Notes: generated by a model from the sequence alone, not told the origin. 64,000 bases of DNA from Candidatus Lindowbacteria bacterium RIFCSPLOWO2_12_FULL_62_27 (GCA_001784175.1 MFPR01000026.1:124001-188000); one strand, 5' to 3'. Numbered from the stretch's first letter, positions 3,277-59,459 are shown. Made by a program: numbers and translations.

Positions 3277-3280
3277 GACG

Positions 3281-44216: not shown

Positions 44217-45248
44217 ATGGCAAGTCCCAAATTTTTGTTGCGCGATATGGAAATGCCCAGGGGTGTGCGGGTGGTTCGGGAAGAGGCCGGCGACTTTGGT
44301 CGCTATGAAATTCAGCCGCTTGAGCGCGGTTTCGGCACGACGTTCGGAAACAGCATCCGCAGGGTGTTGCTCTCGTCCATCGTCGGCGCCGCGCCCTTCG
44401 CGGTCAAAATCTCGACCAAGAGCGGCGCCGCACTGCACGAGTTTGCAACCCTCAAAGGCGTCGTCACGGATACGCTCGACATTCTCTTCAATCTGAAATC
44501 TCTGCGGCTCCGAATGGACCAGGACGGCGTCGTGGTACTGAAGGCCGAAAAGTCGGGACCGGCGAAAATTCTCGGCAAGGACCTCGTGCCGGAGGACCGG
44601 TCCGTCGAAATTCTAAACGAGGATATGTTGATCGCCGAGGTCTCCGAGGGCGGACAGCTCAAGATCGAAATACAGACGCAACTCGGTCGCGGCTATGTGC
44701 CGGCCGAAAATCTCGACCGCAAGCTCGAGCCGGGATGGATCGCCATCGACAGCATCTACAGCCCGGTCGACCGCGTCAACTTCGAGGTCGAAAATACTCG
44801 CGTCGGGCAGATCACCGATTACGACAAGCTCATCATGGAAATCTGGACCGACGGCAGCATCACCCCCCGCGACGCGCTCGCGCACGCCGCCAAGGTCATC
44901 AAGGAGCACATGCAGCCGTTCATCAATTTCGAGGAGGAGGAGAAGATCCTCGATGAGGAAATCGAGCTGACGCCGGAGGAGAAGCAGCTTCAGAAAATTC
45001 TCTCCGTCAGCATCGAGGAACTTGAGCTGTCGGTCCGGTCCTACAACTGCTTGAAGAGCGCCAACATCCACGCGCTCGGAGAGCTTGCGACCAAAACCGA
45101 GGCCGAACTGCTGAAAACTAGAAACTTCGGACGCAAGTCCCTCATGGAAATCAAGGACAAGCTCCAGCAATACAACTTGGAACTCGGCATGAAGGGTGTC
45201 TCGCACCTCCTCGTCAAATCCCAGACGGCGGAAACGGTCGAAGCATGA
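44217..45248 (+). CDS. rpoA: RNA polymerase subunit alpha
   Basis: [39 protein letters not shown]. Confidence 0.98.
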
Positions 45249-45595
45249 AGCATGGCAGGAAACTCGCCAAACTCGGCCGGCCGCGGGCGCTGCGCAAGGC
45301 GCTCCTCCGGGGCCTTGCCACCTCGCTCTTCAAGCACGGCCGCATCACGACCACACTGCCCAAGGCCAAGGGCCTCCGCCCGTACGCCGAACGGCTCCTG
45401 ACCCACGCGCGGCGCGGTACACTCCACGCGCGCCGCCTCGTCCGACGCGCGATTTCGGACCGCATTGTCCTCGCCAAACTCTTTAATGAGATCGCACCGA
45501 AATACAAGGAACGAAACGGCGGCTACACCCGCATCCTCCGCATCCAAAATCGCCTCGGAGACAACGCCACACAAGCCATCATAGAACTCGTTTAG
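45245..45595 (+). CDS. rplQ: 50S ribosomal protein L17
   Basis: [23 protein letters not shown]. Confidence 0.97.
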
Positions 45596-45614
45596 ATTTG
45601 TAAGTCTCTAGAAC

Positions 45615-45699
45615 TGCCGGGAGGGAGATTTGAACTCCCACGAGGTTGCCCCCGCCAGCCCCTCAAGCTGGTGCGTCTGCCAAATTCCGCCATCCCGGC
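45615..45699 (-). tRNA. tRNA-Leu (anticodon GAG); integration target
   Basis: Reverse complement GCCGGGATGGCGGAATTTGGCAGACGCACCAGCTTGAGGGGCTGG...GTTCAAATC...CCCGGCA; long variable arm. Confidence 0.95.
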
Positions 45700-45701
45700 G
45701 C
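45658..45701. repeat. Left att core (44-bp direct repeat)
   Basis: GCCCCTCAAGCTGGTGCGTCTGCCAAATTCCGCCATCCCGGCGC, identical to 59320-59363. Confidence 0.95.
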
Positions 45702-45717
45702 GGTAGAAACTCAAAGC

Positions 45718-45745
45718 ATTATACACGGTCTACGTCTTTTCACAA
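45718..45745 (-). promoter_or_regulatory. Element-borne promoter pointing into tRNA-Leu
   Basis: Minus strand TTGTGA-N16-TATAAT; -10 ends 18 nt before the tRNA 5' end; -35 overlaps the integrase stop. Confidence 0.65.
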
Positions 45746-46942
45746 ACCGGCTTGATGCAAATTTGATGGAAGTTTCTGCGCCCGCAATCTATCCAAGTAG
45801 TCATCAAATTTCACCATGTCCTCCTTCATCGTCGTATCATGAATCACGTAATAGCGGCTGGTAACGTCTTTCTTTCTTCGTCCATGTCCGAGGATGGAAC
45901 GTAGAACCAGCTCCCGACCACCAGCGTTAGCGAAGCACGTTGCAAACGTGTGGCGGAAATCGTGCGTTCGGTAATTGAACTCCTCCGGGTTCATCGCCGC
46001 CCTGATGATTGCAGGCTCGAAAATATGCCGCCCCTTTTTCAGCATCTCGTGATAACGATAGTCGAACGTATCATAACTCCCGTAGTTCTGTCCTCGGTCG
46101 TTCGTGACTACGAATTCGGACATACTGATTACCTTACCCGACAGATAGGGTTCAAGATGGCGTGAAATCGGGACAATCCGATTGCTTCCCCATTTCGGCT
46201 GTCTTGTGCTGGTGTTGTGTGGGTCGCCCCGCTTGTTCATCCACTGCCCTGCGATTCGAAGACAATTGTTCTTCCTATCGACGTACCTCCATTTCAGACC
46301 GAATGATTCACCCAGTCTCAGTCCCGCGAAACAACCAAGCGCAATGACCAACTTCGTAGGTAGTGGAGGCAAATCCAAATCGAGCAGTGCGAACAATTCG
46401 CTGGGCAGTAGCGCAACGTCGACGTAATCGTTCGTCTGCAAGCGTCCGTGCAATGTCACAGGATTGACCCGTGCCGCGTTTTCTCGGATTGCAAGTTTGA
46501 AAGCTAAACCGAGAGCCGTGAGATAGCCGTTGATCGTTGATGGCATCCTCCCTTTTTTCAAAAGAGACTCGACAAATCGTGCCACGTGCTCTTTTGTATC
46601 AATGACTGCCACTGGTTCGTTCCTCCCGAAAAACTCGGCGGCCTCGCTCAAGCTATGAATGTTGCTCTGCGCCACCACCGGATGAAGTTTTCCAGCGGCA
46701 ACCCTTCCGTCCCTCTCCTCCTTGAAAGGCTTCATCAGTTCCGACCACGTCATCCGACGAAAAGGTTCAGACCCGTGCAATTCAATGGTGCGAAGTCGGA
46801 CAAGAAAGTCCTGAAGATATCGTTCCGCCTGCCGTCGGTCGGCGCATCCCGTCGAATGATACGACCAGCGACCTCGTAATGGATGTCGATAGTAAATATG
46901 GTATGTCCCGCCTTTTCCACGCTTGCAAAGTTTCGCCCTCAT
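45740..46942 (-). CDS. Tyrosine integrase
   Basis: GLRLGE (R), HDFRH (HxxR), LGH, RYY; N-terminal arm-binding-like region; adjacent to att. Confidence 0.93.
   Translation of the reverse strand: MRAKLCKRGKGGTYHIYYRHPLRGRWSYHSTGCADRRQAERYLQDFLVRLRTIELHGSEPFRRMTWSELMKPFKEERDGRVAAGKLHPVVAQSNIHSLSEAAEFFGRNEPVAVIDTKEHVARFVESLLKKGRMPSTINGYLTALGLAFKLAIRENAARVNPVTLHGRLQTNDYVDVALLPSELFALLDLDLPPLPTKLVIALGCFAGLRLGESFGLKWRYVDRKNNCLRIAGQWMNKRGDPHNTSTRQPKWGSNRIVPISRHLEPYLSGKVISMSEFVVTNDRGQNYGSYDTFDYRYHEMLKKGRHIFEPAIIRAAMNPEEFNYRTHDFRHTFATCFANAGGRELVLRSILGHGRRKKDVTSRYYVIHDTTMKEDMVKFDDYLDRLRAQKLPSNLHQAGL
45752..45770. promoter_or_regulatory. Putative integrase arm-type sites (left)
   Basis: TTGATGCAAATTTGATGGA, 18/19 identical to 59169-59187. 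Confidence 0.65.
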
Positions 46943-46943
46943 C

Positions 46944-47429
46944 TCACGCCGCCTCTCTGAGCGTCGGTCGAAGGGTTCGGCGGCCCTTTGTCATCAAGCC
47001 ATCAATCCAACTGTTGATATCGGTCAGCCGAAAGCGGACAAAATTGCCGATGTGGAAATTCGGGATATAGTTCTTGGATACCCATCCCTGAATAGTTCGG
47101 GGAGATACATTAAAGAATTTGGCAACTGTTTCCGTGTCCATGATGTCGGTGTCCACGTCGACCGAGTACCGCATTTGCTCGGCAGAAGCAAATCGACCAA
47201 CTGGATGTCTCTGATACCAACCGTTATCCGAAAGCGTTCGCACAACGCCTTTGAATTGAACGTCGTCGAGCGTATCACCCTGCACGCCCAGACGCCGCCA
47301 CGCATCGTCAACGTCCGCTTCGAATAAAAGAGCCGCCCTCGAATCCAATTTCTTGAACTCAAAAAACTCTTCGACATCGCGGCGGCTGTGTTCTACCGAA
47401 TTCTTTTCTTTCTCTTTTTTCTGAGACAT
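46944..47429 (-). CDS. Excisionase-like HTH protein
   Basis: C-terminal MDTETVAKFFNVSPRTIQGWV...IP...IG..VRF...DINSWI; directly upstream of the integrase. Confidence 0.8.
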   Translation of the reverse strand: MSQKKEKEKNSVEHSRRDVEEFFEFKKLDSRAALLFEADVDDAWRRLGVQGDTLDDVQFKGVVRTLSDNGWYQRHPVGRFASAEQMRYSVDVDTDIMDTETVAKFFNVSPRTIQGWVSKNYIPNFHIGNFVRFRLTDINSWIDGLMTKGRRTLRPTLREAA

Positions 47430-47580
47430 GCTCCCACCTTCCACCCCACGTATGTGGGTGTCGGTTGGAGATCGTCACTGCGAATAAAATTTATCGGCTC
47501 GCCCCGGCGTAACCGGGTTTCAAGCGCAGACCTCTTCGTTCCCGGCCACGCCGGGATTAAAATCTATTCCCTATTTCCCC

Positions 47581-48057
47581 CTACCCCACTCCCCTCGCCC
47601 GACCAAACGGCGTGAGCCATACCTCTCCGCTCTCCACGCACGTCGGTTTTGGCGTGGACGGCTGGATACTCTGGCATACCGTCTGCTCGCTTTCTTTCTG
47701 CGTTGTCGATGGCGGTATTTCCTTCCCCCACCGTTTTAGTGCTTTCATGCGATTCTGCTCTCGCCGTGCGTCTAGCTTCGCCTCCGCCTCCCGACACCGT
47801 TCGCCGAGATACCACTCCATTCCAGAGACGAGGATTCGCACCTGACCGCCTTGATGGTGGACGGGCAACGACTTCTCTCTATGCCATTTCTTCAAGCACG
47901 AAATACTCAGGCGGCAATACGTGGCGATTGCAATCCATCCGACCAACTCAGGCGGGCGGACATACCGCGTCTTGGGCACTGGCGGTTCTGGCCGCCTGAG
48001 TTTTCGGATGTCTCGTTTAATCTCCCGTAGTTCTTCGCGGGGCATTTTCTCAGTCAT
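47581..48057 (-). CDS. HTH DNA-binding protein
   Basis: LVGWIAIATYCRLSISCLKKWHREKSLPV, a Xis/MerR-like HTH pattern. Confidence 0.6.
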   Translation of the reverse strand: MTEKMPREELREIKRDIRKLRRPEPPVPKTRYVRPPELVGWIAIATYCRLSISCLKKWHREKSLPVHHQGGQVRILVSGMEWYLGERCREAEAKLDARREQNRMKALKRWGKEIPPSTTQKESEQTVCQSIQPSTPKPTCVESGEVWLTPFGRARGVG

Positions 48058-48170
48058 TCTTGCCGCCACAAAATGAAGTCGAGCCTGAAGTCGACTTCCG
48101 TTCGGCGTGGGCGGGTGAAGTCGGCTTCGGCTCGGTCGGCGAGAGATGGAAGCGGGCGGGCATGTTCAAT

Positions 48171-49970
48171 CTACCAGCGACGTTTGTTGGTCTGTGCATT
48201 CCGAAGAGCATCCTTCTCGTCGTCGGTCAATTCTCGAAATTTCGCCTTGTCGCCTTCGAAATACAACTTCGTCTGACCGCCGGGATTGTTTCGAGACAGC
48301 ACCACACGCACGAGCGTCACAGGCGAGAGAATCTCCTGCGTGTCTTGATATTCGTTCTGATCGTCGTTGACCGTGATCCGACGGTGGAGAATAACGGCGG
48401 TGTCACAGTCTGTCGCCAGACTCGACGAGTCCCTCATGTCCTCAGCTTCGATGATTTTGTCGGCGTCGGTCTTTCGAGTCTGGACGATCACCATGATTGG
48501 TATGCCCAGTTCCATCGCCAAGAGTTTGAAATCCTTGCTTACCGCCCCCGTCTCCTGCGTGACATAGCGTGGATCACGGACGAGAAATTGAAGATTGTCG
48601 AAAACGACAAATTCTATTCCGTACCGTTTGACTGCGGCGCGAATTGTATTCATGACACCTTCGCGTGTTACTCCCAGCGTGTTGAATCCAAAATACAGCG
48701 GCACATCCACAAGCTCGGCTAAACATTGCGATGCTCGACGGTGGTCGATTTCGGATTCTGTGATCCCATATTCCATTTGAAGCGTGCGCTTCACCAAAGC
48801 CACGGGCGGCATTTCAAGACAGTAGACGAGAACGGGAACAGGCGGGTCTCTACGAACAAGATTCCACGCAATGTTGATGGTCATGGTTGTCTTGCCGACC
48901 TTTGGTTTCGCCGATACCATAATCACATCGCCAGCTTTCATTTTGCCCATGATGCGATTCACATTTTCCCACGGAGTTTCAAGACCAATGCCGTCACCAA
49001 CAATTGTGTTCTCCAGAACCTGCTCCATCGCTTGAGTGTGACTCACAATATTCTGGACTTCGGGTTGCTTGGCAGAGTCCAACAAATCGGACAGTTTGAT
49101 TCCCTTTTGCAGAGCCTCATTTGCATCGTTGATCCCGTCTGGGAAATTCACGATGAAGCATCGGGAGATGTCAAGACGGTCGGCGAGTTTCCCGACGGCC
49201 TTTCGACCCGGCGCATCGTTGTCATATGCGAGATAAATCTTTTTCATATCCTTGAGTTGATCGAGCCACTCTGCGGCGAATCCTTCGCACCCTGTCGTCG
49301 ACGACACAACACTTTTTACTCCGTTCTGCCACCATGACATCGCACAAAATTCGCCCTCCGCGATCACCACTGACTCACAATCTTCTTTCAGGGCTACATC
49401 GGCATGGAAAAGAATACTCTTGCATCCAGTGATTCGTCGAAAACGTGCCTCGGCGTCGGTAGCGATAATCCTCCGATATTTCACGTTGACCAATTTCTCG
49501 TCCTCAAAGTGTGGGATGGCGATCCACTCGTCGCCTTTGACATCTACCTCCAAGCCCAGCGCAAAATACGATATTGTTTCGTCGTTCAGCCCACGACTAT
49601 GAAGATAATCCATCCCTCGGCGAGAACTTGCCAATCTCTTCTGCGCCTCAGTGACATCAAACTTCGGCGTTACATACTTTACCCTGCCCGCGACATTCCC
49701 TACCGAAGCCACCTGTCCGTTTCTCCGGAATCTCTGTCCAAGCGTAATGAGGTTTCCCTTTTCGCCGCACACTTTGCAATCCCACTGTCCGTTTAAGCGA
49801 TTCATATACATTTTCCAGTTGGTATTTCCGCAAAACGGACACGTCTGGATCACGAATTGATCGCCTGTCCCACCTTTGTAATTGACCCCGTGCGTCCGAA
49901 GAAAATTTTCTGGTGTCTCGTTCACAACATTGTGCCGCAAATCTCTTGGCGCAGTTACCTCATTGCTCAT
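48171..49970 (-). CDS. T7 gp4/Twinkle-like primase-helicase
   Basis: Zn finger CPFC...CKVC, TOPRIM (AEGEF, YDND), SF4 helicase Walker A AKPKVGKTT, FDNLQ, RDSSSL. Confidence 0.9.
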   Translation of the reverse strand: MSNEVTAPRDLRHNVVNETPENFLRTHGVNYKGGTGDQFVIQTCPFCGNTNWKMYMNRLNGQWDCKVCGEKGNLITLGQRFRRNGQVASVGNVAGRVKYVTPKFDVTEAQKRLASSRRGMDYLHSRGLNDETISYFALGLEVDVKGDEWIAIPHFEDEKLVNVKYRRIIATDAEARFRRITGCKSILFHADVALKEDCESVVIAEGEFCAMSWWQNGVKSVVSSTTGCEGFAAEWLDQLKDMKKIYLAYDNDAPGRKAVGKLADRLDISRCFIVNFPDGINDANEALQKGIKLSDLLDSAKQPEVQNIVSHTQAMEQVLENTIVGDGIGLETPWENVNRIMGKMKAGDVIMVSAKPKVGKTTMTINIAWNLVRRDPPVPVLVYCLEMPPVALVKRTLQMEYGITESEIDHRRASQCLAELVDVPLYFGFNTLGVTREGVMNTIRAAVKRYGIEFVVFDNLQFLVRDPRYVTQETGAVSKDFKLLAMELGIPIMVIVQTRKTDADKIIEAEDMRDSSSLATDCDTAVILHRRITVNDDQNEYQDTQEILSPVTLVRVVLSRNNPGGQTKLYFEGDKAKFRELTDDEKDALRNAQTNKRRW

Positions 49971-49971
49971 A

Positions 49972-50925
49972 CTACCGCCCCCTCGCCGCCTCTTGGCGAT
50001 CTTTGTGAAGTTTTTTCAGTGCCAGTGCCTCAGCATCTGGCATTCTCGGCGGCCTTGAATTGCCGCCCACATATTTCTTTCCGGGGTCCCACCGATTGTT
50101 GTCCAGCCCACAGAGATGGTCTGGGTCAGATAAAAACCATTCCAATGATGTCTTGGGTTCTTTATTCAGAATGAAATCATTTGTCGCCATTCTAACGAAT
50201 AGTTCCCGCCATTCGGCAAGTGTGAGTCTCGCTATCCGCGCCGTGTCCAGACACTGTTTTCGTTTCGTTCGACCGATTCCAAATCGCGATGCCATCTTGG
50301 GCATGATTTCGTTCCATAAATCCTGCAAAATCCCCAAATCCGTTACGGGTCGCTTACCATCGTCCACGAAGTCGACTTCGCCAACCGGCGGCACACCTTG
50401 GGGTAGGTCGATTTTTATCTTTTCTCCAGAAGAGGGGGGTTCCAAAAAGTCGCCGTCCGACCGACGGTCATTCTCTTCTATACTATTCTCTTCTATTCTA
50501 TAGGGGGCTGACATCATGCTGACATCATGTATGACGCTGTCGTTGCCTTTGTTCTTTTTCCGATATTTTTTACTGGCTTCCCGCCAGTGTTGTCTCGTCG
50601 TTTTCCGACTTTCCAAGAAATCGTGATAAAAATCCCATTCCTCCCTCGGTAACCGAAAACGGTCACCATCTTTCTCCAAGAAGCCGACCTTGCCCATGTC
50701 TTCGAATATGCCCTGTAAGTCCATGGCAAATATTTCTCTCGCAAGAACTTCGAGGGACAATTCAGGCAAATATCCGGCATCGCTATTTTCGTTGAGCCAG
50801 TCGTGCAGAATGTGAACGAGCGCAAGTGATTCGAGCTTACTGATGCTACGAATCGTGGCAAGTTTCACTGTGCGGAGGTCATGGTCGAGTCCGTATCTGG
50901 ACGGACGCCAGTCATCGCGCTTCAT
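49972..50925 (-). CDS. Phage-type replication initiator (replisome organiser-like)
   Basis: SD GGAGGT; wHTH-like N-terminus, basic helix, IEENSIEEN linker; directly upstream of the primase-helicase. Confidence 0.6.
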   Translation of the reverse strand: MKRDDWRPSRYGLDHDLRTVKLATIRSISKLESLALVHILHDWLNENSDAGYLPELSLEVLAREIFAMDLQGIFEDMGKVGFLEKDGDRFRLPREEWDFYHDFLESRKTTRQHWREASKKYRKKNKGNDSVIHDVSMMSAPYRIEENSIEENDRRSDGDFLEPPSSGEKIKIDLPQGVPPVGEVDFVDDGKRPVTDLGILQDLWNEIMPKMASRFGIGRTKRKQCLDTARIARLTLAEWRELFVRMATNDFILNKEPKTSLEWFLSDPDHLCGLDNNRWDPGKKYVGGNSRPPRMPDAEALALKKLHKDRQEAARGR

Positions 50926-51082
50926 ATTGACCTCCGTTACTTGCAGAGGGGACTCCACGACTCAGGTGGGTTGGTGCACTGAAAAATTCTACGAGATAAG
51001 GGGACACGTACCGCCGCATGTAAATCACGCTCCTAAACCATATTGGTCGACTCCTTCTCCGATTTTTTGCTTCTTATCCCAC

Positions 51083-51133
51083 AAAAAACCCGGCTGTCTT
51101 GGGTGCTCACGACAAGGCGTGAGACAGCTCGGG
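51083..51133 (-). terminator. Intrinsic terminator/attenuator in the replication operon leader
   Basis: Minus strand CCCG-A-GCTGTCT...AGACAGC-CGGG-TTTTTT. Confidence 0.65.
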
Positions 51134-51193
51134 GTCAAGCATGAATTCTGAATTTGATCTTCGTGAACACCCTGTTTCTTTTGCTACGATCAG

Positions 51194-51222
51194 AGTGTTA
51201 CAAATCGAAGCGCGGTTGTCAA
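51194..51222 (-). promoter_or_regulatory. Candidate promoter of the replication operon
   Basis: Minus strand TTGACA with weak -10 (TAACAC or AACACT) at 16-17 nt; AT-rich upstream. Confidence 0.4.
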
Positions 51223-51335
51223 TACAAATCAAAAAATATATTTTTGTAACCCCATGATATAGAATGACTTGACATTTTGAAAACGACTCCCTCGCCCTCG
51301 CCGCTCCCGCTCCCGCCTCGACCTCCTCCGCCGAG

Positions 51336-51369
51336 AAAAAAACAAGCGGGTCGTGTGAACCCGCTTGTT
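51336..51369 (-). terminator. Rho-independent terminator of the cargo operon
   Basis: AACAAGCGGGT-TCACACG-ACCCGCTTGTT followed by a T-run on the minus strand. Confidence 0.85.
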
Positions 51370-51407
51370 CCCATGCGCTGACAGGCGTTCGTTCCAATAT
51401 CTTACTA

Positions 51408-51506
51408 TCAAATTTTGTCAGCGAATAAAACCTCCGCAATCTGTGCCGTTCGCCGCCGCTTTTTTGTTTCGGCGCAGAACGGACATGTCTTCGTGTCGTC
51501 GCTCAT
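51408..51506 (-). pseudogene. Zinc-ribbon protein remnant
   Basis: MSDDTKTCPFCAET start coupled by ATGA overlap; second CxxC missing; 32 codons. Confidence 0.45.
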
Positions 51507-54286
51507 CTCACGACCGCCAATTTTTCGACGAGCGTGTTCCCGCCGCTCTCCAGCTTGTAAATGTAGACACCAGAGCCTACCTTCTGCCCATTCTTGTCCG
51601 TCGTGTCCCATGTCAGATTATTTGTTCCCGCCGATCCTGACGCACTCAACTCTCGCACCAGCCGACCGCCAACGTCGAAGATTTTGATCGAAACGTCTGC
51701 GGCGGCGGGGAGGTTGAATTTAAACGTCACGATGTCAGTAGCCGGGTTGGGAAACGCAAACGACAGATCTCTTGAGAGTGGCGACGCCAGAAACGGAGCC
51801 AAGTATTCCGGAAGTCCGACCGCCAACGTCAATGCTGTTGCCGATGAGACCAGAGCCGAAGACGCCGTCCGCAAATTCACAGCCCCGCCCGACGTGCCCA
51901 GCAGGTACGCCTCATACTGCGTCGGCAGGTTCTGGACGTTGTCCCACGTCAGCGTCGTGACTCCCATATCCGAAGCGACCAGCACGTCCCACGTCTTGCC
52001 CGCCGTAATCGGTTCGGCATAGGACGCCGCCATCCATTCTTGTGTTCCTTGTGGTCGCACGGCGGTGGACACGTAGCCAGCGGCGACCGGCGGTGCTTCC
52101 AATGCTGACGCCGCCCGGCGTTCGCCCGGAGTCGACTTCACCCCAATATAATTTTGCCAGTCACTTAATCCGGCGGACGTGGCTATAAGTTGAACCGCCC
52201 ATTCGTTGTCCAGCGGCTGACCATATCCGGCGGACAAATATGCCGGAGCCTGATTGAGTATCTCCGTCGCATACGTCTCCGGACTCGTCGGATTTGGCAG
52301 GATGAACATCGTGCAGGATTGATTCGCCTTCACCCAGAATCCCACCATGGGCTTGAGTCCCATCGTGACCAACGACGGCGTCTCACTCGCCGGAGCGTAA
52401 ATGTAATTTGAGCCAGTATACCAGTAGACCTTATTCTGAATGGCATTCGATGCGCCCGCCTGCGCCGGTGTCAGCCTTTGGCTTTGCGGAAGCGCAGTAT
52501 CGTTAACGCCGGACGTGTCGAAGGTAACACCGGAGTCCCAGCTCACGTAGAAGTATTGTCCCGACGCCACCTGGTTCCACCCGACCCGTAAACGCACTTG
52601 CACCGTATCGGATGTGGCGAATCCATCCGAAGGGACGAACACACGCCCACCTGTTCCGTCCTTGACCCAGTAAGCACGACCACGGACTGCGTCGCCGCCG
52701 GGGACGGCATATTTTGTGCCGTTCAGACTCGAATTGTCCGCCGCATTGGCGTCCCACTCGTAAACCGTGGCGTTTGGTAAGCCGCCGGTCGTGCTTTTGA
52801 GATTCCATCCGGCCGGATTTTTATTTGCTCCAACCATGCGCCAGCCCAATCCCAATGTGTTCCCGCCTGCTGGCACGTCCCTACCGTCCGCATATACCGT
52901 AAACACGACCGACTTCGCCGGAGTCACGCTATCGTTTCTGGCTTCGACCCTATAGACTCCCGCCGCCGTGCCCAGTGTGAGCGTGTCCGTCGCATAGCCG
53001 GAGGCGTCCGTGTAGACCGTAGGAGACGAAAGACTCCCGGAGCCGTGCGTGACGGTGAACGTGACCCTTGCTCCCATCACACCGTTGCTCCCTCCGGTGT
53101 CGACCACACGGACGGTCAACGGCAATGCCGCCGACGGTGCGCCCAAGGCGTGATTACCGCTCACAATCACAATCGTGTCAGGCGGTGACGGAAGAACGAT
53201 GGGATTGATTCGGAACACATCGTCTGACGTGTCCGCCGTCGCCGCGTCCGTCGCGCTCACGATCCGAACTTTTGCTTGCGTCGTGTTCAGGTTCGGCACA
53301 GACCACACATACGATCCGGTATTCGTGGTGGACGCAACAATGCTCGACCAAGTCATGCCAGAATCGCTTGAATATTCCAGCCGCACCGTTGATATCGTCC
53401 CTGTATTTGACCACGTCACCGTCTCCGTCGTGCCCGCCTGAAACGAATCGCCGCTATTTGGTCGTGTGAGCGTGAACCCGCCACGAATGGCAAAATTCGC
53501 ATCAGACGTGTCGAACCCTACACCATCCGACACACGGGCACGAATGCCGGTAGCTATTGAATCCGGCACTGTCCACGCATAGCTCCCAGAGTTCGCCGTC
53601 GACGCTGTGATGACGTTCGGGAATGTGAATCCGCTATCGGTTGAATAGTCCAGACGGACGGAGGATATTGTTCCCGTCGATGTCCAAGTAACCGTCCGAG
53701 CATCACCGACCGTCCATATCTCCCCACCGTTCGGGGATGTGAGGCTGAATCCTCCGGCAATCCTGAAATTTGCATCCGACACATCAAGCACGTTGGCGTT
53801 CGCCGAATCCGATACACGGACACGAACGTATTGGCTGATTGAATCAGGGATGTTCCACGCAAAATTTCCGCTATTGGCGGTGTAGGAAATCAGATTCGGG
53901 AACGTCGAACCGCTATCCGTGCTGAATTCTATTTTCACGTTCCCGATACCGGACACCGTCGTCCACAATATATTTTTCGCCGTGCCAACGGCGAGAGTCT
54001 CCCCGCCGTTCGGTGATGCTATGGCAATCGTATCGTCGCCGAACCGTAGGTTATAGATGAAACCATTTTTGGAGACGAACGATGTGCTGGTCATCGTGTC
54101 TATTGCCGGTTGCCCAGCGGAGCCTAACAACCGAAAACTTAGTGATGAAATGCTGTCGCCGCCGTTATCATTGACGGAGACACGAATCTTGAAATTTGAT
54201 GAGGTCATCGACGAATATGACGAACTCGCCTGCACCAACAGAATGCAGATGATTAATGCCCTCTTGCATAAGTCCTGGAAGAACAA
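51503..54286 (-). CDS. Large secreted Ig-like-repeat surface protein with C-terminal FlgD/T9SS-A-like domain
   Basis: Signal peptide; three SPNGGE...W...EYSTD.G...N.G.Y.W.VP repeats; Big_1-like domain; C-terminal FPNP...IFDVGGRLV...WD....G..VGSGVYIY. Confidence 0.8.
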   Translation of the reverse strand: MFFQDLCKRALIICILLVQASSSYSSMTSSNFKIRVSVNDNGGDSISSLSFRLLGSAGQPAIDTMTSTSFVSKNGFIYNLRFGDDTIAIASPNGGETLAVGTAKNILWTTVSGIGNVKIEFSTDSGSTFPNLISYTANSGNFAWNIPDSISQYVRVRVSDSANANVLDVSDANFRIAGGFSLTSPNGGEIWTVGDARTVTWTSTGTISSVRLDYSTDSGFTFPNVITASTANSGSYAWTVPDSIATGIRARVSDGVGFDTSDANFAIRGGFTLTRPNSGDSFQAGTTETVTWSNTGTISTVRLEYSSDSGMTWSSIVASTTNTGSYVWSVPNLNTTQAKVRIVSATDAATADTSDDVFRINPIVLPSPPDTIVIVSGNHALGAPSAALPLTVRVVDTGGSNGVMGARVTFTVTHGSGSLSSPTVYTDASGYATDTLTLGTAAGVYRVEARNDSVTPAKSVVFTVYADGRDVPAGGNTLGLGWRMVGANKNPAGWNLKSTTGGLPNATVYEWDANAADNSSLNGTKYAVPGGDAVRGRAYWVKDGTGGRVFVPSDGFATSDTVQVRLRVGWNQVASGQYFYVSWDSGVTFDTSGVNDTALPQSQRLTPAQAGASNAIQNKVYWYTGSNYIYAPASETPSLVTMGLKPMVGFWVKANQSCTMFILPNPTSPETYATEILNQAPAYLSAGYGQPLDNEWAVQLIATSAGLSDWQNYIGVKSTPGERRAASALEAPPVAAGYVSTAVRPQGTQEWMAASYAEPITAGKTWDVLVASDMGVTTLTWDNVQNLPTQYEAYLLGTSGGAVNLRTASSALVSSATALTLAVGLPEYLAPFLASPLSRDLSFAFPNPATDIVTFKFNLPAAADVSIKIFDVGGRLVRELSASGSAGTNNLTWDTTDKNGQKVGSGVYIYKLESGGNTLVEKLAVVR

Positions 54287-54310
54287 TTTAGTGTGTATGG
54301 ACAGCCTCTA

Positions 54311-55441
54311 TTATTTGGATATCCAACATCGAAATGAGAATAAAGCAGTCCTAGGAGTGGCTGTGGCATCAGCGAATATATAATCCAATGAATTGGTCTG
54401 AGTCGTAGCGACAGTGAAGGTCTGCCTATCCATCCCGAAGTCGGATAGCCACTCTCTGTCATCAAGTTTATTCAACAGCGAATAATTATTCATTGACACG
54501 TACCACTCTGCGGCGGTTGGCAGTCTTCCCCCATACTTAACAAAACACGTATTCGTTGCGTTAAACCATGAATCTGTGCCCTCTTCGTCGGTCTGCATAC
54601 AACCTAACTGATAGCCAGCAGATTTTATGCTCGTAAAATTTACCGGACATATAATCTCCAGCAATGCTGTCGGATTTGTGACGCCGATCCCTACATAGGC
54701 TGAATCAGATGAAATCACAAAAGTGCCCGTTTGATTGGTAGCAGTAACATTGAACAATCCGATAGGATTTGATGTGCCCAATGTCATATTACCACTTGTA
54801 CTAACGAATGCCGTTGCCGTTACTGTGCCGCTCACGTCTAATGCAGTAGCCGGATTAAGCTTCCCAATGCCGACATTGCCGCTCTCTTTCACAGTCAATG
54901 CTGTGTCCTGCACGGTAAATGTGTCCCGGACTCTGACGTTGCCTGCCACATCCAGTTTCGCCCCCGGATTGGACGTGCCTATACCGACCTTGCCGCTCAA
55001 TGTCGCTGTCTCCGCCACCGTGAACGCACCGGATGCTTGTGCGGAGCCAGCCAAAAATGCGGCGGTGTCCGCATAAAGAGCATACGGCGAGGACATCAGT
55101 CTCCGGCGTGGTGTCATTTCCGCATCACCGGCGACGGTAATGCCAAGCCAATACTGGGTATCAAACGGCAACGACAACGCCGTCACACTTCCAAGCTCCA
55201 CGTCGAAGACGCCGCTTGTGACGGACACCGATGACTGCGCTTCGGTCCACAACGCCGACCCGCCGGACGGGACGTTATACAACTTGAAAGTCATCGCATA
55301 CGTTCCTGTCAGGCGTGCGCCGACGGAATCAGTAAGCTGACCCTGAAATGAAATCAGGCGTGGTGCGGATGCGGTTGCAGATATAGCAAGCGACATCGTC
55401 AGGAATAAAAAAATTGAACCGATTCTGCTGGTTTTAGTCAT
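54311..55441 (-). CDS. Secreted fibre-like protein with C-terminal C-type-lectin/FGE-like domain
   Basis: SD GGAGGT; signal peptide; ISFQGQLTD...SSPYA domain; G(N/K)VGIG repeats; WFNA...C...GGRLPTAAEW...EW...FRC terminus. Confidence 0.7.
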   Translation of the reverse strand: MTKTSRIGSIFLFLTMSLAISATASAPRLISFQGQLTDSVGARLTGTYAMTFKLYNVPSGGSALWTEAQSSVSVTSGVFDVELGSVTALSLPFDTQYWLGITVAGDAEMTPRRRLMSSPYALYADTAAFLAGSAQASGAFTVAETATLSGKVGIGTSNPGAKLDVAGNVRVRDTFTVQDTALTVKESGNVGIGKLNPATALDVSGTVTATAFVSTSGNMTLGTSNPIGLFNVTATNQTGTFVISSDSAYVGIGVTNPTALLEIICPVNFTSIKSAGYQLGCMQTDEEGTDSWFNATNTCFVKYGGRLPTAAEWYVSMNNYSLLNKLDDREWLSDFGMDRQTFTVATTQTNSLDYIFADATATPRTALFSFRCWISK

Positions 55442-55487
55442 GTCTGATACCTCCGAGTTTTAATTTTTGTTGCGTGGCGTCACGCCC

Positions 55488-56072
55488 CTATCTATTTGAA
55501 TAAAAATAGATGTCAGCGTTTGTATGCAACCCAATGCACTTCCGCAAGGATTCGGCAGGTGCAGAACGGCTCCCTTGCCCTCCGCGAAAGACTCCTCTTA
55601 TTCCCCACTCCACTTTTTTCCTGCCTTTGATATTTTTCAGTTCGGGATTGACCAATAAGGATTGTCGGATTAGAAATTTCTCAAGCTTTCTTATATGTGT
55701 CTCATTTATTCGTCCTTGCTTTTTCGGGGATGTCAAAATGAAAAGTACGGGGGTTCCCTTACGTTCGGCAATTATCGGAGCGATAAAACGAACTATATTA
55801 CGGTCATTCAACGCTTCGTCTTTAAAAGTTCTCAGAGTCATTCCCACGTAATACGGCGTCAGTCCTTTTGTTCGAATGGCGAAAACATAACAGCCTTTTC
55901 TCCCTGCGATATCCTTACGACCTGCCCAAAAAAGTTCCCTTGTCGTATCGGTCATTCCCCGCGTCTTCTTATCTAAGGGAATCTCAAAGGGTCCATGAAC
56001 ATCGAACATTGTTATGCGGGTGTTTGACATTTTTCTCAGGTGGGTCTGCGACAAATCCCGGCTTGTTTCCAT
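55488..56072 (-). CDS. GIY-YIG superfamily nuclease
   Basis: GCYVF...YYVG, later E (KLEKFLI) and N (ELKN); SD GGAGG 6 nt before ATG 56072 (alternative start 56030). Confidence 0.7.
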   Translation of the reverse strand: METSRDLSQTHLRKMSNTRITMFDVHGPFEIPLDKKTRGMTDTTRELFWAGRKDIAGRKGCYVFAIRTKGLTPYYVGMTLRTFKDEALNDRNIVRFIAPIIAERKGTPVLFILTSPKKQGRINETHIRKLEKFLIRQSLLVNPELKNIKGRKKVEWGIRGVFRGGQGSRSAPAESLRKCIGLHTNADIYFYSNR

Positions 56073-56086
56073 GCCCTGCCTCCGAC

Positions 56087-56110
56087 AAAAAAGGGACGAG
56101 GATGCCGTCC
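56087..56110 (-). terminator. Intrinsic terminator between the structured RNA and the GIY-YIG gene
   Basis: Minus strand GGACG-GCATCCT-CGTCC-C-TTTTTT. Confidence 0.6.
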
Positions 56111-56400
56111 AGTTTTGTGTCACCAGCGAGGTTGCACAGACAGGACTCCCTTTCGGGATGTTGGCATCTCCGCCCCACACATAGTCGATGTGGAGACAGA
56201 GCATTCCTGTCCGTGCATAAAAACATTATGGTCGCTGGTGACACCTCTGCGGCACAAAGCCGCAACGCCCACATCTTCGCACACCTCGCCCTGTGCGGCA
56301 AGGTCGGATTTTCGTCGGGGGCGGGAGAGGACACTATGTGCGGGCGGCGCGGATCGCCGTCGACCCCCGCCACGGCGTGGAAAACGCCATCCACGGAGGC
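56087..56400 (-). ncRNA. Putative unrecognised structured RNA
   Basis: Nested 13-bp helices 56117-56129/56232-56244 and 56133-56145/56205-56217, a G-U-rich 14-bp hairpin, a GAAA tetraloop hairpin and further upstream hairpins. Confidence 0.6.
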
Positions 56401-56419
56401 GGCTGGGGCTGGCGAACAG

Positions 56420-56701
56420 TCAGAGAATCAAAAAACTGTTGTGCTCTATGTCGAGCCGATGTACATCATGTTTGGATAGTGTGTTCCCCTGCGAGATGTA
56501 TAGACGGTCACCGCACTGTGGGTTGCCCTTTTCAGGCGAGCGGGGTTGTTTTGACCCGCTCGATTTTTTTCCCCACTCGCCGCCGTAGTCGACCTTCATC
56601 GAGCGCAAGACCGCCACGTCTTTCGGCGTTTCGGGCGTGAGGATTTTGAATTCCCTCCCATCCTCCGCGATGATTATTGTTTCTCTCATGGCTCTCACCA
56701 C
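56420..56701 (-). CDS. Hypothetical protein
   Basis: Co-oriented ORF overlapping the upstream gene end; no recognised motif. Confidence 0.45.
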   Translation of the reverse strand: MVRAMRETIIIAEDGREFKILTPETPKDVAVLRSMKVDYGGEWGKKSSGSKQPRSPEKGNPQCGDRLYISQGNTLSKHDVHRLDIEHNSFLIL

Positions 56702-57012
56702 TTCGGCGATTCGCCACGCTCCTCCATTTGCTTCCCCACCAATTCATACTCGTCCCATTCTTTCGACCAAGTTGCTTTGATCTTCCCAAGTTCGACCAAG
56801 TCCGCACAGGACGCAAGCTCAGCCAAACGTCTGACAAAGCCGCCCCCATACTTATGCATGGCGGCGATTGTCCATCGGCGGCGTTCGAATTCTTCATCGC
56901 GTTCTTTCATTTTACGTCGCCTCATCCGTGCAACAATCCGAAGCCAATTCTTGTTGACAGGGTCGGCGTCGATGTTGATGATTTTCTCGTCGTCGCTCGC
57001 ATCGTCGCTCAA
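56695..57012 (-). CDS. Small phage-like hypothetical protein
   Basis: TTGA-coupled start; M.KYGGGFV..LA.....AD...KI...W..EW..Y pattern reminiscent of phage ORFs. Confidence 0.6.
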   Translation of the reverse strand: MSDDASDDEKIINIDADPVNKNWLRIVARMRRRKMKERDEEFERRRWTIAAMHKYGGGFVRRLAELASCADLVELGKIKATWSKEWDEYELVGKQMEERGESPKW

Positions 57013-57428
57013 TCGGCTTCGTCCGCCTTGAAAATGGTTATCACGGGTTCGAGATTGTCCCCACCGTGGCACTGCGCCCGAAGCAGAACCGGGACCGGCG
57101 GCTTGTTCGGCGTCATTACGAAGAGCGGTGCGATCCTCACAATGTCCGTCGATCCCGACGCCGATTTGATTGCGTATCGCAAAATCGTCAGCATGTCCCA
57201 GCATCGTCCGACCGTGTCAGTTTCTGGGATATCATTTCGTTCGAGGACATCGTGCCACACGGCTGATGTCACGCAGAGCGAAAATTTTATCCCGACCTCA
57301 CGCGCCAACTCGGATATGTCGAGAAGTGTTCCATCCCGGATCGCGTCCGCCCGCGTGAAGGCATAGATGAGGTCCGACTCGTTGAATATTGACTCGGAGC
57401 GGACTGCTATCGTTTCTGTGTTAATCAA
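57009..57428 (-). CDS. DUF6573-like protein
   Basis: FTRADAIRDGTLLD...TSAVW...GRCWDML...GGDNLEPVITI; SD GGAGGT before TTG. Confidence 0.65.
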   Translation of the reverse strand: MINTETIAVRSESIFNESDLIYAFTRADAIRDGTLLDISELAREVGIKFSLCVTSAVWHDVLERNDIPETDTVGRCWDMLTILRYAIKSASGSTDIVRIAPLFVMTPNKPPVPVLLRAQCHGGDNLEPVITIFKADEAD

Positions 57429-57444
57429 TCTGACCACCTCCAGT

Positions 57445-57762
57445 TTATTTCTCGTAGTTCCACGCTTGTGCCCGCCGCATGATGTCCCATACGGCGTGAT
57501 ATACCGCCGCTCGTTTTCCGTCGACGATGCTCGCCTTGAAGTTCCCATAGTCAATCGCTCTGATTCGTCTGGCGATTCCATCGGCTACCACGTCCTCATC
57601 GATGGACGCACGGAATGGATAATCAAATTTTGGAGTCTGCCTGACTCTGGCGGTTGGAAATATTCGACCGATGTCGCGGGGGAAGCGGCTTCTTACCAGC
57701 AAATTCTTTTTATTCGATTCATCTCGCACGATACTCAAAAAACTGTCCGCAAATATCCACAT
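57445..57762 (-). CDS. Conserved phage-type hypothetical protein
   Basis: MWIF..SFLSIV...LLVRSR...DYPFRA...IDYGNFK...VW pattern. Confidence 0.65.
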   Translation of the reverse strand: MWIFADSFLSIVRDESNKKNLLVRSRFPRDIGRIFPTARVRQTPKFDYPFRASIDEDVVADGIARRIRAIDYGNFKASIVDGKRAAVYHAVWDIMRRAQAWNYEK

Positions 57763-57775
57763 GGCGTTTCTCCTG

Positions 57776-58006
57776 TCACTTCATTGGTCGCCCCACCTTT
57801 AACTCTCCCGTGCGTTTCTGGAATTTGCCACGTCGTTTCTTTTCCAAGCTGTCCACCGCCTCCGTAAGCGCACACTCTGTAAGTTCGGACAGCGTCAGCC
57901 CCGGCGTCCAGAACACGGCGTTCTTCACGCGGTCGATGATGTCGGTCGATACGTGGATCGTCAGGCGTTCTTTTTTCGGCTTCTCAGTCTTCGCGTTGGG
58001 CTTCAT
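57776..58006 (-). CDS. Ribbon-helix-helix/partition-type DNA-binding protein
   Basis: RLTIHV beta-strand followed by two helices (DRVKNAVFWTPGLTLSEL); no parA seen. Confidence 0.6.
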   Translation of the reverse strand: MKPNAKTEKPKKERLTIHVSTDIIDRVKNAVFWTPGLTLSELTECALTEAVDSLEKKRRGKFQKRTGELKVGRPMK

Positions 58007-58023
58007 GTCTTCTCCGTTATTTT

Positions 58024-58051
58024 CCTTACGATAATGCGTGTTTTGTTAAAG
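58024..58051. promoter_or_regulatory. dif-like recombination site
   Basis: CCTTACGATAA-TGCGTG-TTTTGTTAAAG; 11-6-11 layout, right arm close to the XerD arm TTATGTTAAAT. Confidence 0.5.
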
Positions 58052-58055
58052 ATAG

Positions 58056-59045
58056 TCATACGCTCGCCGCCACAAGACTGGCTACATCCCCAGCCAAGTC
58101 CGTGCGGTTATCGTCGTAGGCATATAGTGTCCGAACATCCTTATGCCGCGAAAATCTTTGTACAGCCCTGACATTCCCGTTCGTCAAATCCAGCGCGGTC
58201 GTAATAGCTTCGTGCCTGACGCCGTGTGGTCGGACTCGCACACCTGCTTTATCTCCCAACTCTCGTATAACCAGATACAGCCCCGTTCCTGTTATACGAT
58301 TGCCCTTTCCCGTTCCACCATGAATTAAATTGGTGAACAGTGCCCCCGGCTCTGGACCACGGACATCAAGCCACGCTTGAACAGCCAACTTGGTTTTGTC
58401 AGGTAGTGTCAGATTCAATTTTTGTGTCTGTCCTTTTCCGAGCACGGCAATTGTCCCGGCGTTCGTGTCCACGTCGTCCACGTCCAACGACACGATCTCG
58501 CCCCGTCGAAGACCAAGTCCATGCAGGAGTCGCAGAATCGCACGGTCACGAATGCCTTTCCTGTCATTACGGTTCTCCAACTTCAACAAAAGAGACCTCA
58601 CACCTTCCCTGCCGGGGCCACGGGTGTCACGATATTTTTCTGCTTTCAGGTTCTCGACCTCCAGCCGCCACTGGACGATGCCCAGAGTAGACGCCAGCTT
58701 CACCAGAGACCGCAAAGCCGCCAGCCGTCGATTGATGGTCGTCGCTTGGAGACCCTTCTGGATCAGGTCGGATTTGTATGCAAGAGCCAGACCGTTCGCC
58801 TCGCCGTTCCCACGTGACAATAGAAGCCGTGCGGCATCGTCCAGCGTTCCCGAACCGACAAACGACCGGAAGCCTTCAAGGTCTTGGCGGTATGCTCGGA
58901 TCGTCCGCTCGTTTCTGCCCGACAAGAAGGCGGAGACCAGAGCGGCGGCGTCTGTGCGGCGGGTTGCTATAAAGGTGAAGTTGGCTTCCTGTGGGGTGAT
59001 GGTGGTTGGTTCTGATTTAACGAGCGTTGCGGTAACCATGACCAT
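58056..59045 (-). CDS. Second tyrosine recombinase (XerC/D-like resolvase)
   Basis: TIRAYRQDL, NRRLAALRSL, GLRRGE, GKG, HGVRH, SRH, YDD. Confidence 0.92.
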   Translation of the reverse strand: MVMVTATLVKSEPTTITPQEANFTFIATRRTDAAALVSAFLSGRNERTIRAYRQDLEGFRSFVGSGTLDDAARLLLSRGNGEANGLALAYKSDLIQKGLQATTINRRLAALRSLVKLASTLGIVQWRLEVENLKAEKYRDTRGPGREGVRSLLLKLENRNDRKGIRDRAILRLLHGLGLRRGEIVSLDVDDVDTNAGTIAVLGKGQTQKLNLTLPDKTKLAVQAWLDVRGPEPGALFTNLIHGGTGKGNRITGTGLYLVIRELGDKAGVRVRPHGVRHEAITTALDLTNGNVRAVQRFSRHKDVRTLYAYDDNRTDLAGDVASLVAASV

Positions 59046-59049
59046 CTAT

Positions 59050-59078
59050 ATAGTAACAAAAGGGAACGTTTATGTCAA
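59050..59078 (-). promoter_or_regulatory. Promoter of the second recombinase, overlapped by an imperfect inverted repeat
   Basis: Minus strand TTGACA-N17-TACTAT with TG extension; plus strand TAACAAAA-N8-TTATGTCA. Confidence 0.6.
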
Positions 59079-59168
59079 AAGGGGGTGCTTTCAGGGCTGT
59101 TTGAGAGTCAAGGCGTTAGAATATTTGTTTCCCATGCACTCGGTAGACGCCTACAAGCCCTCGAAAAT

Positions 59169-59187
59169 TTGATGCAAAGTTGATGGA
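59169..59187. promoter_or_regulatory. Putative integrase arm-type sites (right)
   Basis: TTGATGCAAAGTTGATGGA, 18/19 identical to 45752-45770. Confidence 0.65.
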
Positions 59188-59319
59188 GATTTCGGACGAA
59201 ACGGACGGTAGACAGGTGCGGATAGAAGGTATGCGGTTGCGGATTGACCTGATTGACAGTCAGGCGGTTAGGTTGGGATGCCTGTGCAAATTAAGGAGTA
59301 ATGAAAAATGCCGTTCTTC

Positions 59320-59363
59320 GCCCCTCAAGCTGGTGCGTCTGCCAAATTCCGCCATCCCGGCGC
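59320..59363 (-). repeat. Right att core: displaced 5' fragment of tRNA-Leu
   Basis: Identical to 45658-45701; covers the tRNA 5' end through the anticodon loop. Confidence 0.95.
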
Positions 59364-59459
59364 CATGGGCGGCGCGCCAATTCGATACTCCATATATAAG
59401 GACATCACGCCCAAAGTCAATGGGTGGGGCTTGACAACGAGATCCAAATTTGTTGTATT

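Follow-up and report, generated by a model that had tools for sequence, protein, structure and literature searches.

A 13.66-kb integrative element of reversed polarity in a tRNA-Leu gene of Candidatus Lindowbacteria and its possible exchange of promoters with the host

The tRNA-Leu(GAG) locus and the boundaries of the element

The DNA considered here is a stretch of 64,000 nucleotides (nt) from Candidatus Lindowbacteria bacterium RIFCSPLOWO2_12_FULL_62_27 (GCA_001784175.1, MFPR01000026.1:124001-188000), which we call the window and in which positions are counted from the first letter. It holds a 13.66-kb block that we regard as an integrative and probably self-replicating element seated in a tRNA gene with "reversed" polarity; the host genes rpoA-rplQ flank it at one end, an OprB-like porin at the other. 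A repeat search found one perfect 44-nt direct repeat at the ends of the block (45658-45701 and 59320-59363, spacing 13662 nt), and its left copy lies in the tRNA-Leu(GAG) gene that ARAGORN places at 45615-45699 on the minus strand, where the Rfam tRNA model RF00005 scores 50 bits. In the sense of the tRNA the repeat extends from position -2 to position 42 and spans the acceptor arm, the D arm and, of the anticodon stem-loop, the 5' strand, the loop of 7 nt (34-40) and 2 nt of the 3' strand. These limits confirm an earlier reading of the same DNA from the sequence alone (the sequence-only reading), which had let the repeat run from the tRNA 5' end through the anticodon loop.

Beyond the repeat, the left copy continues as tRNA and the right copy passes into unrelated sequence; it is therefore the left copy that forms part of the intact gene, the right one being a terminal fragment of the 5' end. 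Both copies are on the minus strand, the fragment lies upstream, in the tRNA sense, of the intact gene, and integrase DNA abuts the 5' end of the intact tRNA. The repeat layout thus also bears out that the intact tRNA sits downstream of element DNA and that the native upstream region precedes the fragment only. The GC content is about 0.58-0.65 in the flanks versus 0.47-0.59 between the repeats, and every large open reading frame (ORF) in the block is on the minus strand, co-oriented with the tRNA. The features at the two junctions, including the attachment (att) core and the two recombinase genes beside it, are as follows.

45245-45595, plus strand: rplQ (ribosomal protein L17), host flank; Pfam Ribosomal_L17, E 8.9e-38; convergent with the tRNA, 19 nt apart
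45615-45699, minus strand: intact tRNA-Leu(GAG) (ARAGORN, RF00005), a hybrid with the 3' part in host DNA and the 5' part, to the anticodon loop, in the repeat
45658-45701, no strand assigned: left copy of the 44-nt identity block (att core region), 100% identity
45718-45745, minus strand: sigma-70-like candidate promoter TTGTGA-N16-TATAAT in element DNA, 10/12; its -10 hexamer ends 18 nt before the tRNA 5' end
45740-46942, minus strand: tyrosine integrase "Int400", 400 aa, divergent in sequence; Pfam Phage_integrase 8e-10, phrog_1 1.3e-43
58056-59045, minus strand: Xer-like tyrosine recombinase; Pfam Phage_integrase 7.2e-22, with SAM_1
59050-59078, minus strand: promoter-like site immediately ahead of the Xer-like ORF, TTGACA-N17-TACTAT with TG, 10/12
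59320-59363, minus strand: displaced 5' half of the host tRNA-Leu, which forms the right copy of the block (repeat search, alignment)
59393-59420, minus strand: presumed native tRNA promoter TTGACT-N16-TATATA, 9/12; its -10 hexamer ends 31 nt before the fragment
59506-60975, plus strand: OprB-like porin, host flank; Pfam OprB 3.3e-6; in divergent orientation to the displaced promoter

An intact tRNA gene and its cognate terminal fragment in the same orientation, enclosing two ORFs with Phage_integrase domains over a length of 13.66 kb (within 2-200 kb), are what Islander defines as an island that targets a tRNA gene (tDNA). The island is of the 5'-fragment kind, as it supplies the 5' part of the tRNA and the DNA upstream of the tRNA, and the edge of the block, 2 nt 3' of the 7-nt anticodon loop, places it with the anticodon-centred site type. 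No degenerate third att copy was found inside the element, which is consequently a single unit.

De Bruijn contigs break at repeats, and this is the sole point in favour of the view that the repeat is an assembly artefact, or else a local duplication, with no mobile element involved. We consider this extremely improbable: independent contigs from another metagenome (L022) contain the same attL junction, a 13692-nt unitig runs across 45672-59363, and the block has the genes and the shift in GC content that belong to an island. The attL junction rplQ-tRNA-integrase was recovered from 7 runs of 4 studies with 0.91-1.00 of the sampled words.

Promoter-like sequences and the origin of the tRNA promoter

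Two promoter-like sequences lie where the sequence-only reading had put them. TTGTGA-N16-TATAAT (45745-45718) stands just upstream of the intact tRNA, and on the host side the candidate -35 hexamer TTGACT (59420-59415) is followed after 16 nt by TATATA (59398-59393), a motif missed by a stricter promoter scan because its second hexamer ends in A. For 47 tRNA genes of this genome that stand first in their operon, we scored the best match to TTGACA-N16-18-TATAAT in the upstream 90 nt, with 3000 random 90-nt pieces of the genome as background. A score of at least 9/12 was reached in 9 of the 47 tRNA upstream regions versus 64 of the random pieces, and a score of at least 10/12 in 4 versus 9. The tRNA upstream regions are therefore rich in motifs of the TTGACA/TATAAT type relative to the background, from which it follows that the organism uses tRNA promoters of the sigma-70 type. 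The element-side motif is among the top 4 of the 47, and to judge by their sequence both it and the host-side motif are credible promoters.

The observed junctions, gene content and motifs would be explained together if a 13.66-kb element had recombined with the chromosomal tRNA-Leu(GAG), most likely by a crossover in the anticodon loop, and if its attP had carried the 5' part of the tRNA (-2 to 42) with the sequence upstream of it, not the usual 3' part. Integration would have rebuilt an intact tRNA from the 5' half of the element and the 3' half of the host, and would have stranded the host 5' half and its upstream region at the far end. While the element is integrated, the tRNA would be transcribed from TTGTGA-N16-TATAAT, possibly with additional read-through from the genes of the integrase and its helix-turn-helix (HTH) neighbour, and the stranded host promoter would read through the half-tRNA into the Xer-like operon. 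On the excised circle the element promoter would take over and read into the same operon, so that the two partners would exchange promoters. As a whole we consider this explanation, including the rebuilding of the tRNA as a hybrid, quite probable.

Within it, the most likely reading is that the element promoter supplies the tRNA, and we hold it with reasonable though somewhat lesser confidence. What stands of this proposal of the sequence-only reading is that the intact gene can be served only from element DNA and that the motif there ranks so high; the use of the promoter is predicted from the motif. Similarly, the claim that the host promoter now points into element genes holds for the geometry, because the Xer-like gene lies co-oriented in front of the displaced region, with no predicted terminator to separate it from the half-tRNA fragment, and transcription along this path is likewise a prediction. 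The leader between fragment and gene has no unusual fold (z +1.07 versus shuffles); an attenuator or a known RNA was considered at this place and rejected on this fold and because Rfam finds the tRNA only. The earlier notion of recombination as a transcriptional switch is better replaced by that of a promoter exchange: a tRNA-type promoter would face the Xer-like operon both in the integrated and in the excised state, which is not an on/off arrangement.

Several points weigh against this explanation, some at the promoter and some, given further below, at the corresponding site in other genomes and contigs. By itself, a match of hexamers is weak evidence. Between the end of the integrase and the tRNA there are 41 nt and no terminator, so that co-transcription could serve the tRNA with no dedicated promoter, and a second tRNA-Leu(GAG) is present in a tRNA array on contig C27, so that the copy at 45615-45699 may not be essential. 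The possibility of co-transcription leads to a different account, in which the element has no dedicated promoter and the hexamers are incidental, the tRNA being released from the HTH-integrase read-through by RNase P and 3' processing. In keeping with this account, the -35 hexamer contains the integrase stop codon, and only 9 of the 47 host tRNA upstream regions reach 9/12, so that many tRNAs manage with weaker motifs or by co-transcription. On the other hand, a 10/12 match whose TATAAT is perfect and lies at a suitable distance occurs in only 9 of 3000 random pieces, and in a related genome, G001, a homologous 73-nt segment stands alone upstream of the tRNA, with no integrase gene from which to read through. 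Processing from read-through without a promoter therefore appears improbable to us. None of the 7 runs that hold the attL junction is on record as RNA.

Four genomes of the phylum are in the set examined, the present one (G000) and G001, G002 and G003 of the same family. Their tRNA-Leu(GAG) is 99-100% identical to ours, and its neighbourhood is different in each:

G003: tRNA 57 nt downstream of rplQ, same strand
G001: tRNA 7 kb downstream of rplQ, same strand
G002: tRNA and rplQ on different contigs
present genome: tRNA convergent with rplQ, 19 nt apart

Linkage of tRNA-Leu(GAG) to rplQ is thus seen in three of the four genomes (window 45595-45615; L018 1440-1585; L024 8361-15758), co-directional in G003 and G001 and inverted here. 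Given the opposite orientation, the tRNA or the whole island must have inverted at some point. A second copy of the 42-nt 5' part of the tRNA was not found in G001, G002 or G003 at up to 3 mismatches.

The empty site rplQ-tRNA-Leu-porin, which the sequence-only reading had expected in relatives, was not found. In the three other family genomes, which are not syntenic here, the tRNA is arranged differently, and when metagenome contigs were searched for exact copies of the 85-nt tRNA, three came up, two with the same element junction and one G002-like, so that 0 of 3 contigs with the intact tRNA show an empty attB. Logan contigs of 4 runs contain no attP or attB joint, that is, none that skips or circularises the element; as these contigs end at the 44-nt repeat and cannot show rare junctions, this is no evidence either way on excision. 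With regard to current mobility, the depth of the element is about that of its flanks (X3: 15.1 versus 17.8 and 17.2; Logan contigs).

The block could accordingly be a fixed remnant that no longer excises, which would make the promoter exchange historical only. All 7 listed runs hold the attL junction, element and flanks are about equally deep with no joined form in sight, and the cargo genes have many host paralogues, all of which would suit a remnant. We nevertheless regard it as rather unlikely, because the 44-nt repeats are still free of mismatches, the ORFs of both recombinases, of the HTH protein and of the primase-helicase are intact, and rare junctions would escape the contigs in any case.

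The DNA upstream of tRNA-Leu in G001 is of particular interest for the origin of the promoter. Beside this tRNA there is no integrase; its upstream neighbour is a divergent PP2C / cNMP-binding gene with its start 73 nt away, and the 73-80 nt in between are homologous to the tRNA-proximal DNA of the element. Their local alignment scores 38 versus a null of 14.4 +/- 2.1 (z 11.4; reached by 0 of 500 shuffles), and 46 of 80 aligned columns are identical, versus 30 of 99 further upstream. The longest identical block, GTTTGTGAAA, covers the -35 hexamer, and the similar stretch holds a degenerate copy of CATCAA-N5-CATCAA, a repeat that the element has on both sides of its att core. The 7 kb between the 5' side of the tRNA and rplQ in G001 have a GC content of 0.51-0.53 versus 0.56-0.60 in the flanks. 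A displaced 5' fragment of the tRNA was not found in G001 at up to 3 mismatches, and the best local alignment in its rplQ-proximal spacer is at chance level (score 17 versus a null mean of 17.6). In G003, with its tRNA-Leu 57 nt from rplQ, the upstream sequence is unrelated.

The G001 segment would seem to be the remains of a related island of the 5' type that has left its promoter module at the tRNA, an interpretation that we find somewhat more plausible than its negation. That the module is the only DNA upstream of the G001 tRNA-Leu supports the view that it can serve as a promoter region. Among the points against our explanation, the similarity could also mean that the element captured a host-derived segment. 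The tRNA-proximal 80 nt would then have come from a host, and G001 would display the native tRNA-Leu promoter of the family. The G001 site has no integrase, tRNA fragment or any other element gene, and in P0122, the only close relative of the integrase, conservation does not extend to the final 18 residues of the ORF, which means that this DNA need not be derived from an integrase gene. Against a capture stand the degenerate arm-like CATCAA repeat in the similar stretch, which also occurs on the other arm of the element, far from the tRNA sequence, the low GC content of the 7 kb in G001, as expected for a decayed island, and the unrelated upstream sequence in G003. We therefore give a capture from the host a real but distinctly smaller chance. 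Synonymous-looking changes in the last integrase codons were dropped as evidence for a relic, as this tail is not conserved in P0122. The sequence-only reading had named, as a sign against itself, a relative that lacks the element and has the 45702-45745 sequence upstream of its tRNA-Leu. In G001 this is partly the case, since related sequence stands there without an integrase, and the sign is not usable in that form.

Genes of the element, its two recombinases and a sibling island at tRNA-Pro(TGG)

In the tRNA sense the element consists of the half-tRNA, a spacer, the Xer-like gene, small ORFs with a DUF6573 protein, cargo, a 328-aa protein, the primase-helicase, two HTH proteins and the integrase. 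The features not yet listed are:

45752-45776, minus strand: arm-like repeat CATCAA-N5-CATCAA on the P side, in the last integrase codons; 88% identical to 59169-59193
46944-47444, minus strand: HTH_17 / excisionase-like protein directly upstream of the integrase; Pfam HTH_17 1.8e-10, phrog_66, TIGR01764 below cut-off
47581-48069, minus strand: second HTH / excisionase-like protein; Pfam, PHROG and NCBIfam searches
48171-49970, minus strand: fused primase-helicase (zinc ribbon, Toprim, DnaB_C); Pfam, phrog_239 7.6e-75
49972-50958, minus strand: 328-aa protein with a weak replication-initiator match in the PHROG search
51503-54286, minus strand: cargo; 927-aa protein with Ig repeats and a sorting tail for type IX secretion; Pfam Por_Secre_tail 8.7e-12
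54311-55441, minus strand: 376-aa fibre/adhesin-like protein, cargo; NCBIfam Bdello_MAT_N 2.4e-9, below cut-off; host paralogues
within 56532-58006, minus strand: small ORFs and the DUF6573 protein (57009-57581, minus strand; Pfam 5.1e-14)
59046-59319: spacer of 274 nt between the Xer-like gene and the displaced half-tRNA upstream of it
59169-59193, minus strand: arm-like repeat on the P' side (repeat search)
59252-59265, no strand assigned: 14-mer ATTGACAGTCAGGC, found in inverted orientation in an arm of the sibling tRNA-Pro element

An integrase together with a primase-helicase is the equipment of P4-type satellites and of integrative mobilisable elements. The present element resembles P4-type satellites in its integrase, its excisionase-like HTH protein and its fused primase-helicase, and in that no capsid or terminase gene was detected in it by Pfam and PHROG searches. 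It differs in that a viral contig collection holds no detectable relative of its primase-helicase and no close one of its integrase (2 remote loci only, 25% identity, E 5e-4); an attP search of the viral contigs with the element-side 44 nt gave 0 exact matches, and nothing points to a helper phage. The cargo looks host-derived, because its proteins belong to large host families: by tblastn, the genome has more than 20 paralogues of the 927-aa and 376-aa proteins, with 33-57% identity, those of the 927-aa protein at 33-48% on many host contigs.

The same genome has a second island, at tRNA-Pro(TGG), on contig C28 (78354-99074; loci L028, L029). Here a 46-nt direct repeat of the 3' part of the tRNA, which begins in the anticodon stem, lies 20.6 kb from the intact gene, and a paralogue of the Xer-like recombinase (40% identical, 1e-71) stands directly downstream of the intact tRNA-Pro. 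The two islands share the order tRNA piece, Xer-like gene, cargo, HTH_17 gene, integrase gene, tRNA piece, in the same orientation to the tRNA, and their HTH_17 proteins are homologous (2e-13). In contrast, the 419-aa integrase of the tRNA-Pro island has no BLAST similarity to the 400-aa integrase; the tRNA-Pro island carries the 3' part of its tRNA, the usual polarity, whereas the tRNA-Leu element carries the 5' part; and the intact tRNA-Pro adjoins the Xer-like gene, whereas the intact tRNA-Leu adjoins the integrase. The cargo of the tRNA-Pro island is defence-like and SOS-like (SNF2/PLD helicase, Eco57I-type methylase, UmuD/UmuC-like and SRAP proteins), and NYN, DprA-like and DUF6036 genes are present as well. 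Paired short repeats occur on both arms of both islands (CATCAA at tRNA-Leu, GCTTAGAA at tRNA-Pro), and the 14-mer common to the two lies, inverted, on the non-tRNA side of the core (3 shared 12-mers observed versus 0.02 expected from shuffles). A composite of two tandem elements was ruled out, as neither island has an internal degenerate att copy.

It is tempting to assume a single family of two-recombinase islands that can take either half of a tRNA. A decayed island of the 5' type would leave its promoter as the only DNA upstream of the tRNA, as in G001, so that mobile elements would permanently overwrite tRNA promoters in this phylum, and the same outward promoter would serve the tRNA in the integrated state and the Xer-like operon in the excised one. 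In this full extent the idea is speculative, and we think it doubtful. A sibling pair of opposite polarity within one genome could show what decides which half of the tRNA is found in attP.

As to which enzyme catalyses integration, the odds for the 400-aa integrase and the Xer-like recombinase are roughly even. The integrase is exceptional in its isolation: among 1.84 billion representatives there are 2 proteins at E<=1e-30, one of them the integrase itself, and 21 at E<=1e-10. P0122 is the one close relative that an exhaustive search returned, a word-indexed search having matched the integrase only, and relatives were absent from the 3 other family genomes, from 4 genomes that hold Xer-like loci and from 401 sampled genomes of the phylum of G041. 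The Xer-like recombinase is one of a large family of recombinases borne by elements, with 2143 homologues at E<=1e-20. Chromosomal XerC or XerD was rejected as its identity, as the gene lies inside a mobile element and scores far below the NCBIfam equivalog cut-offs (100.1 bits for XerC, cut-off 335; 84.8 for XerD, cut-off 329.6).

The Xer-like enzyme might thus integrate at the tRNA, with the 400-aa enzyme and the HTH protein left to control excision or to resolve replicated circles, and we give this a little less than an even chance. The tRNA fragment and the Xer-like gene have the same orientation, the gene being 274 nt downstream, and its paralogue likewise stands directly downstream of tRNA-Pro. 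Among 79 loci of Xer-like relatives, 4 (L069, L075, L086, L102) have a co-oriented intact tRNA 320-450 nt upstream together with island-type cargo, and at another 4 a tRNA lies no more than 700 nt downstream; relatives are also found in prophage-like regions of Azospirillum, which makes this an integrase family and not chromosomal XerC/D. On the other side, 71 of the 79 loci have no tRNA within 700 nt, and the Xer-like protein begins at its SAM-like core-binding domain without any extra N-terminal region, though arm-like repeats flank the core. The 400-aa integrase has a longer N-terminal region; together with the Xis-like gene it abuts the att site in the classical order xis-int-attP, 41 nt from the tRNA, and the arm-like repeats differ between the two islands as their integrases do. 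Both islands carry both enzymes, so that geometry does not discriminate. A blastn-short search for half-tRNAs upstream of the 79 relatives, against 137 tRNAs and of limited sensitivity, found only the 4 intact tRNAs.

Some of these loci merit a remark of their own. In L086, from a metagenome-assembled genome of Verrucomicrobia, a 41-nt 5' part of tRNA-Arg(CCT) (38/41 identical) lies 3.5 kb upstream of the intact tRNA, and with the divergent P4-like integrase between fragment and tRNA it forms a small islet of reversed polarity (167-207 and 2501-3787). A Xer-like island abuts the 3' side of the same tRNA-Arg(CCT), and L069 has the same order of integrase, tRNA and Xer-like gene. Close homologues of the Xer-like recombinase lie strikingly often on contigs of about 10-11 kb (L043, L057, L072, L080, L095, L100), which may represent a circular or multicopy unit. 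Several copies are present per Azospirillum genome, and in L045 a homologue is next to a gpA terminase gene.

Relation to known systems and other tRNA genes of the genome

The reversed layout and its consequence for the promoter are rare but already documented (PMC4383910, PMC8371274, PMC6563490). Table 1 of Islander gives 3919 tDNA islands, 3760 with a 3' fragment and 159 (~4%) with a 5' fragment, and the same source names an "anticodon-centred" site type (Williams site type A) and describes a filter that excludes Xer-type recombinases (PMC4383910). Recombination at the 5'-distal side is called "considerably less frequent" in a passage that cites Zhao and Williams 2002 (PMC6563490). In a review of archaeal tyrosine recombinases, recombinant tRNA genes of bacteria are stated to keep their own promoter with very few exceptions, and pTN3-like elements to use the 5' half of a tRNA that is then expressed from the integrase promoter, an arrangement seldom met in bacteria (PMC8371274, which summarises Cossu et al. 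2017 and Krupovic and Bamford 2008). In ICEKp1, ICEclc and ICEEc1 a host tRNA promoter and a promoter at the element end are reported to be exchanged according to the state of integration (PMC13023037).

So far as these sources describe them, each system agrees with the tRNA-Leu element in part only. Like the 5'-fragment islands of Islander, an intact tDNA and a direct 5' fragment bound an island with an integrase, and the block ends at the anticodon stem-loop; unlike them, the element has two tyrosine recombinases, one Xer-like and the other with one close relative in 1.84 billion, and the phylum of its host counts 4 genomes in the set examined. With the pTN3-like archaeal plasmids it shares an attB formed by the tRNA's 5' half and a rebuilt tRNA that would be served from element DNA next to the integrase, but those elements are archaeal and their integrase gene is split on integration, whereas here both recombinase genes are whole and the candidate promoter is at the 3' end of the integrase gene instead of being the integrase's own (PMC8371274). 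The geometry also fits the ICEKp1 type, in that the host tRNA promoter would face the recombinase gene beside the att site when integrated, here the Xer-like gene, and an outward promoter at the other element end would read across attP into that gene when excised (PMC13023037). In ICEKp1, ICEclc and ICEEc1, however, the element carries the 3' part, so that the tRNA remains under its own promoter (PMC13023037); in the tRNA-Leu element the outward promoter would also serve the tRNA during integration, and the host promoter would read a half-tRNA only.

If the element promoter does drive the tRNA, a host gene of an essential type would have come under the control of mobile DNA, and vice versa a strong host tRNA promoter would have been handed to the recombinase operon of the element, which amounts to a mutual dependence of host and element. 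The principle is already known from the archaeal pTN3-type plasmids, the 5' islands of Islander and the promoter exchange of ICEKp1. The possible relic in G001 would show that a replacement of the promoter can outlast the element.

Two further observations concern other tRNA genes of the genome. The array on contig C27 (1563-5297) comprises about 30 tRNA genes in less than 4 kb, including the second tRNA-Leu(GAG) at 4787-4873, and may be part of a phage or other mobile element. Near several other tRNA genes (C14:58901, C26:16763, C26:107889, C28:164392, C4:293391) there is a structured repeat, which consists of a long hairpin GTCCCTG...CAGGGAC around CCATCC(T/A)TGG and then, bordering directly on the tRNA, of a short palindrome around CATCCATG.

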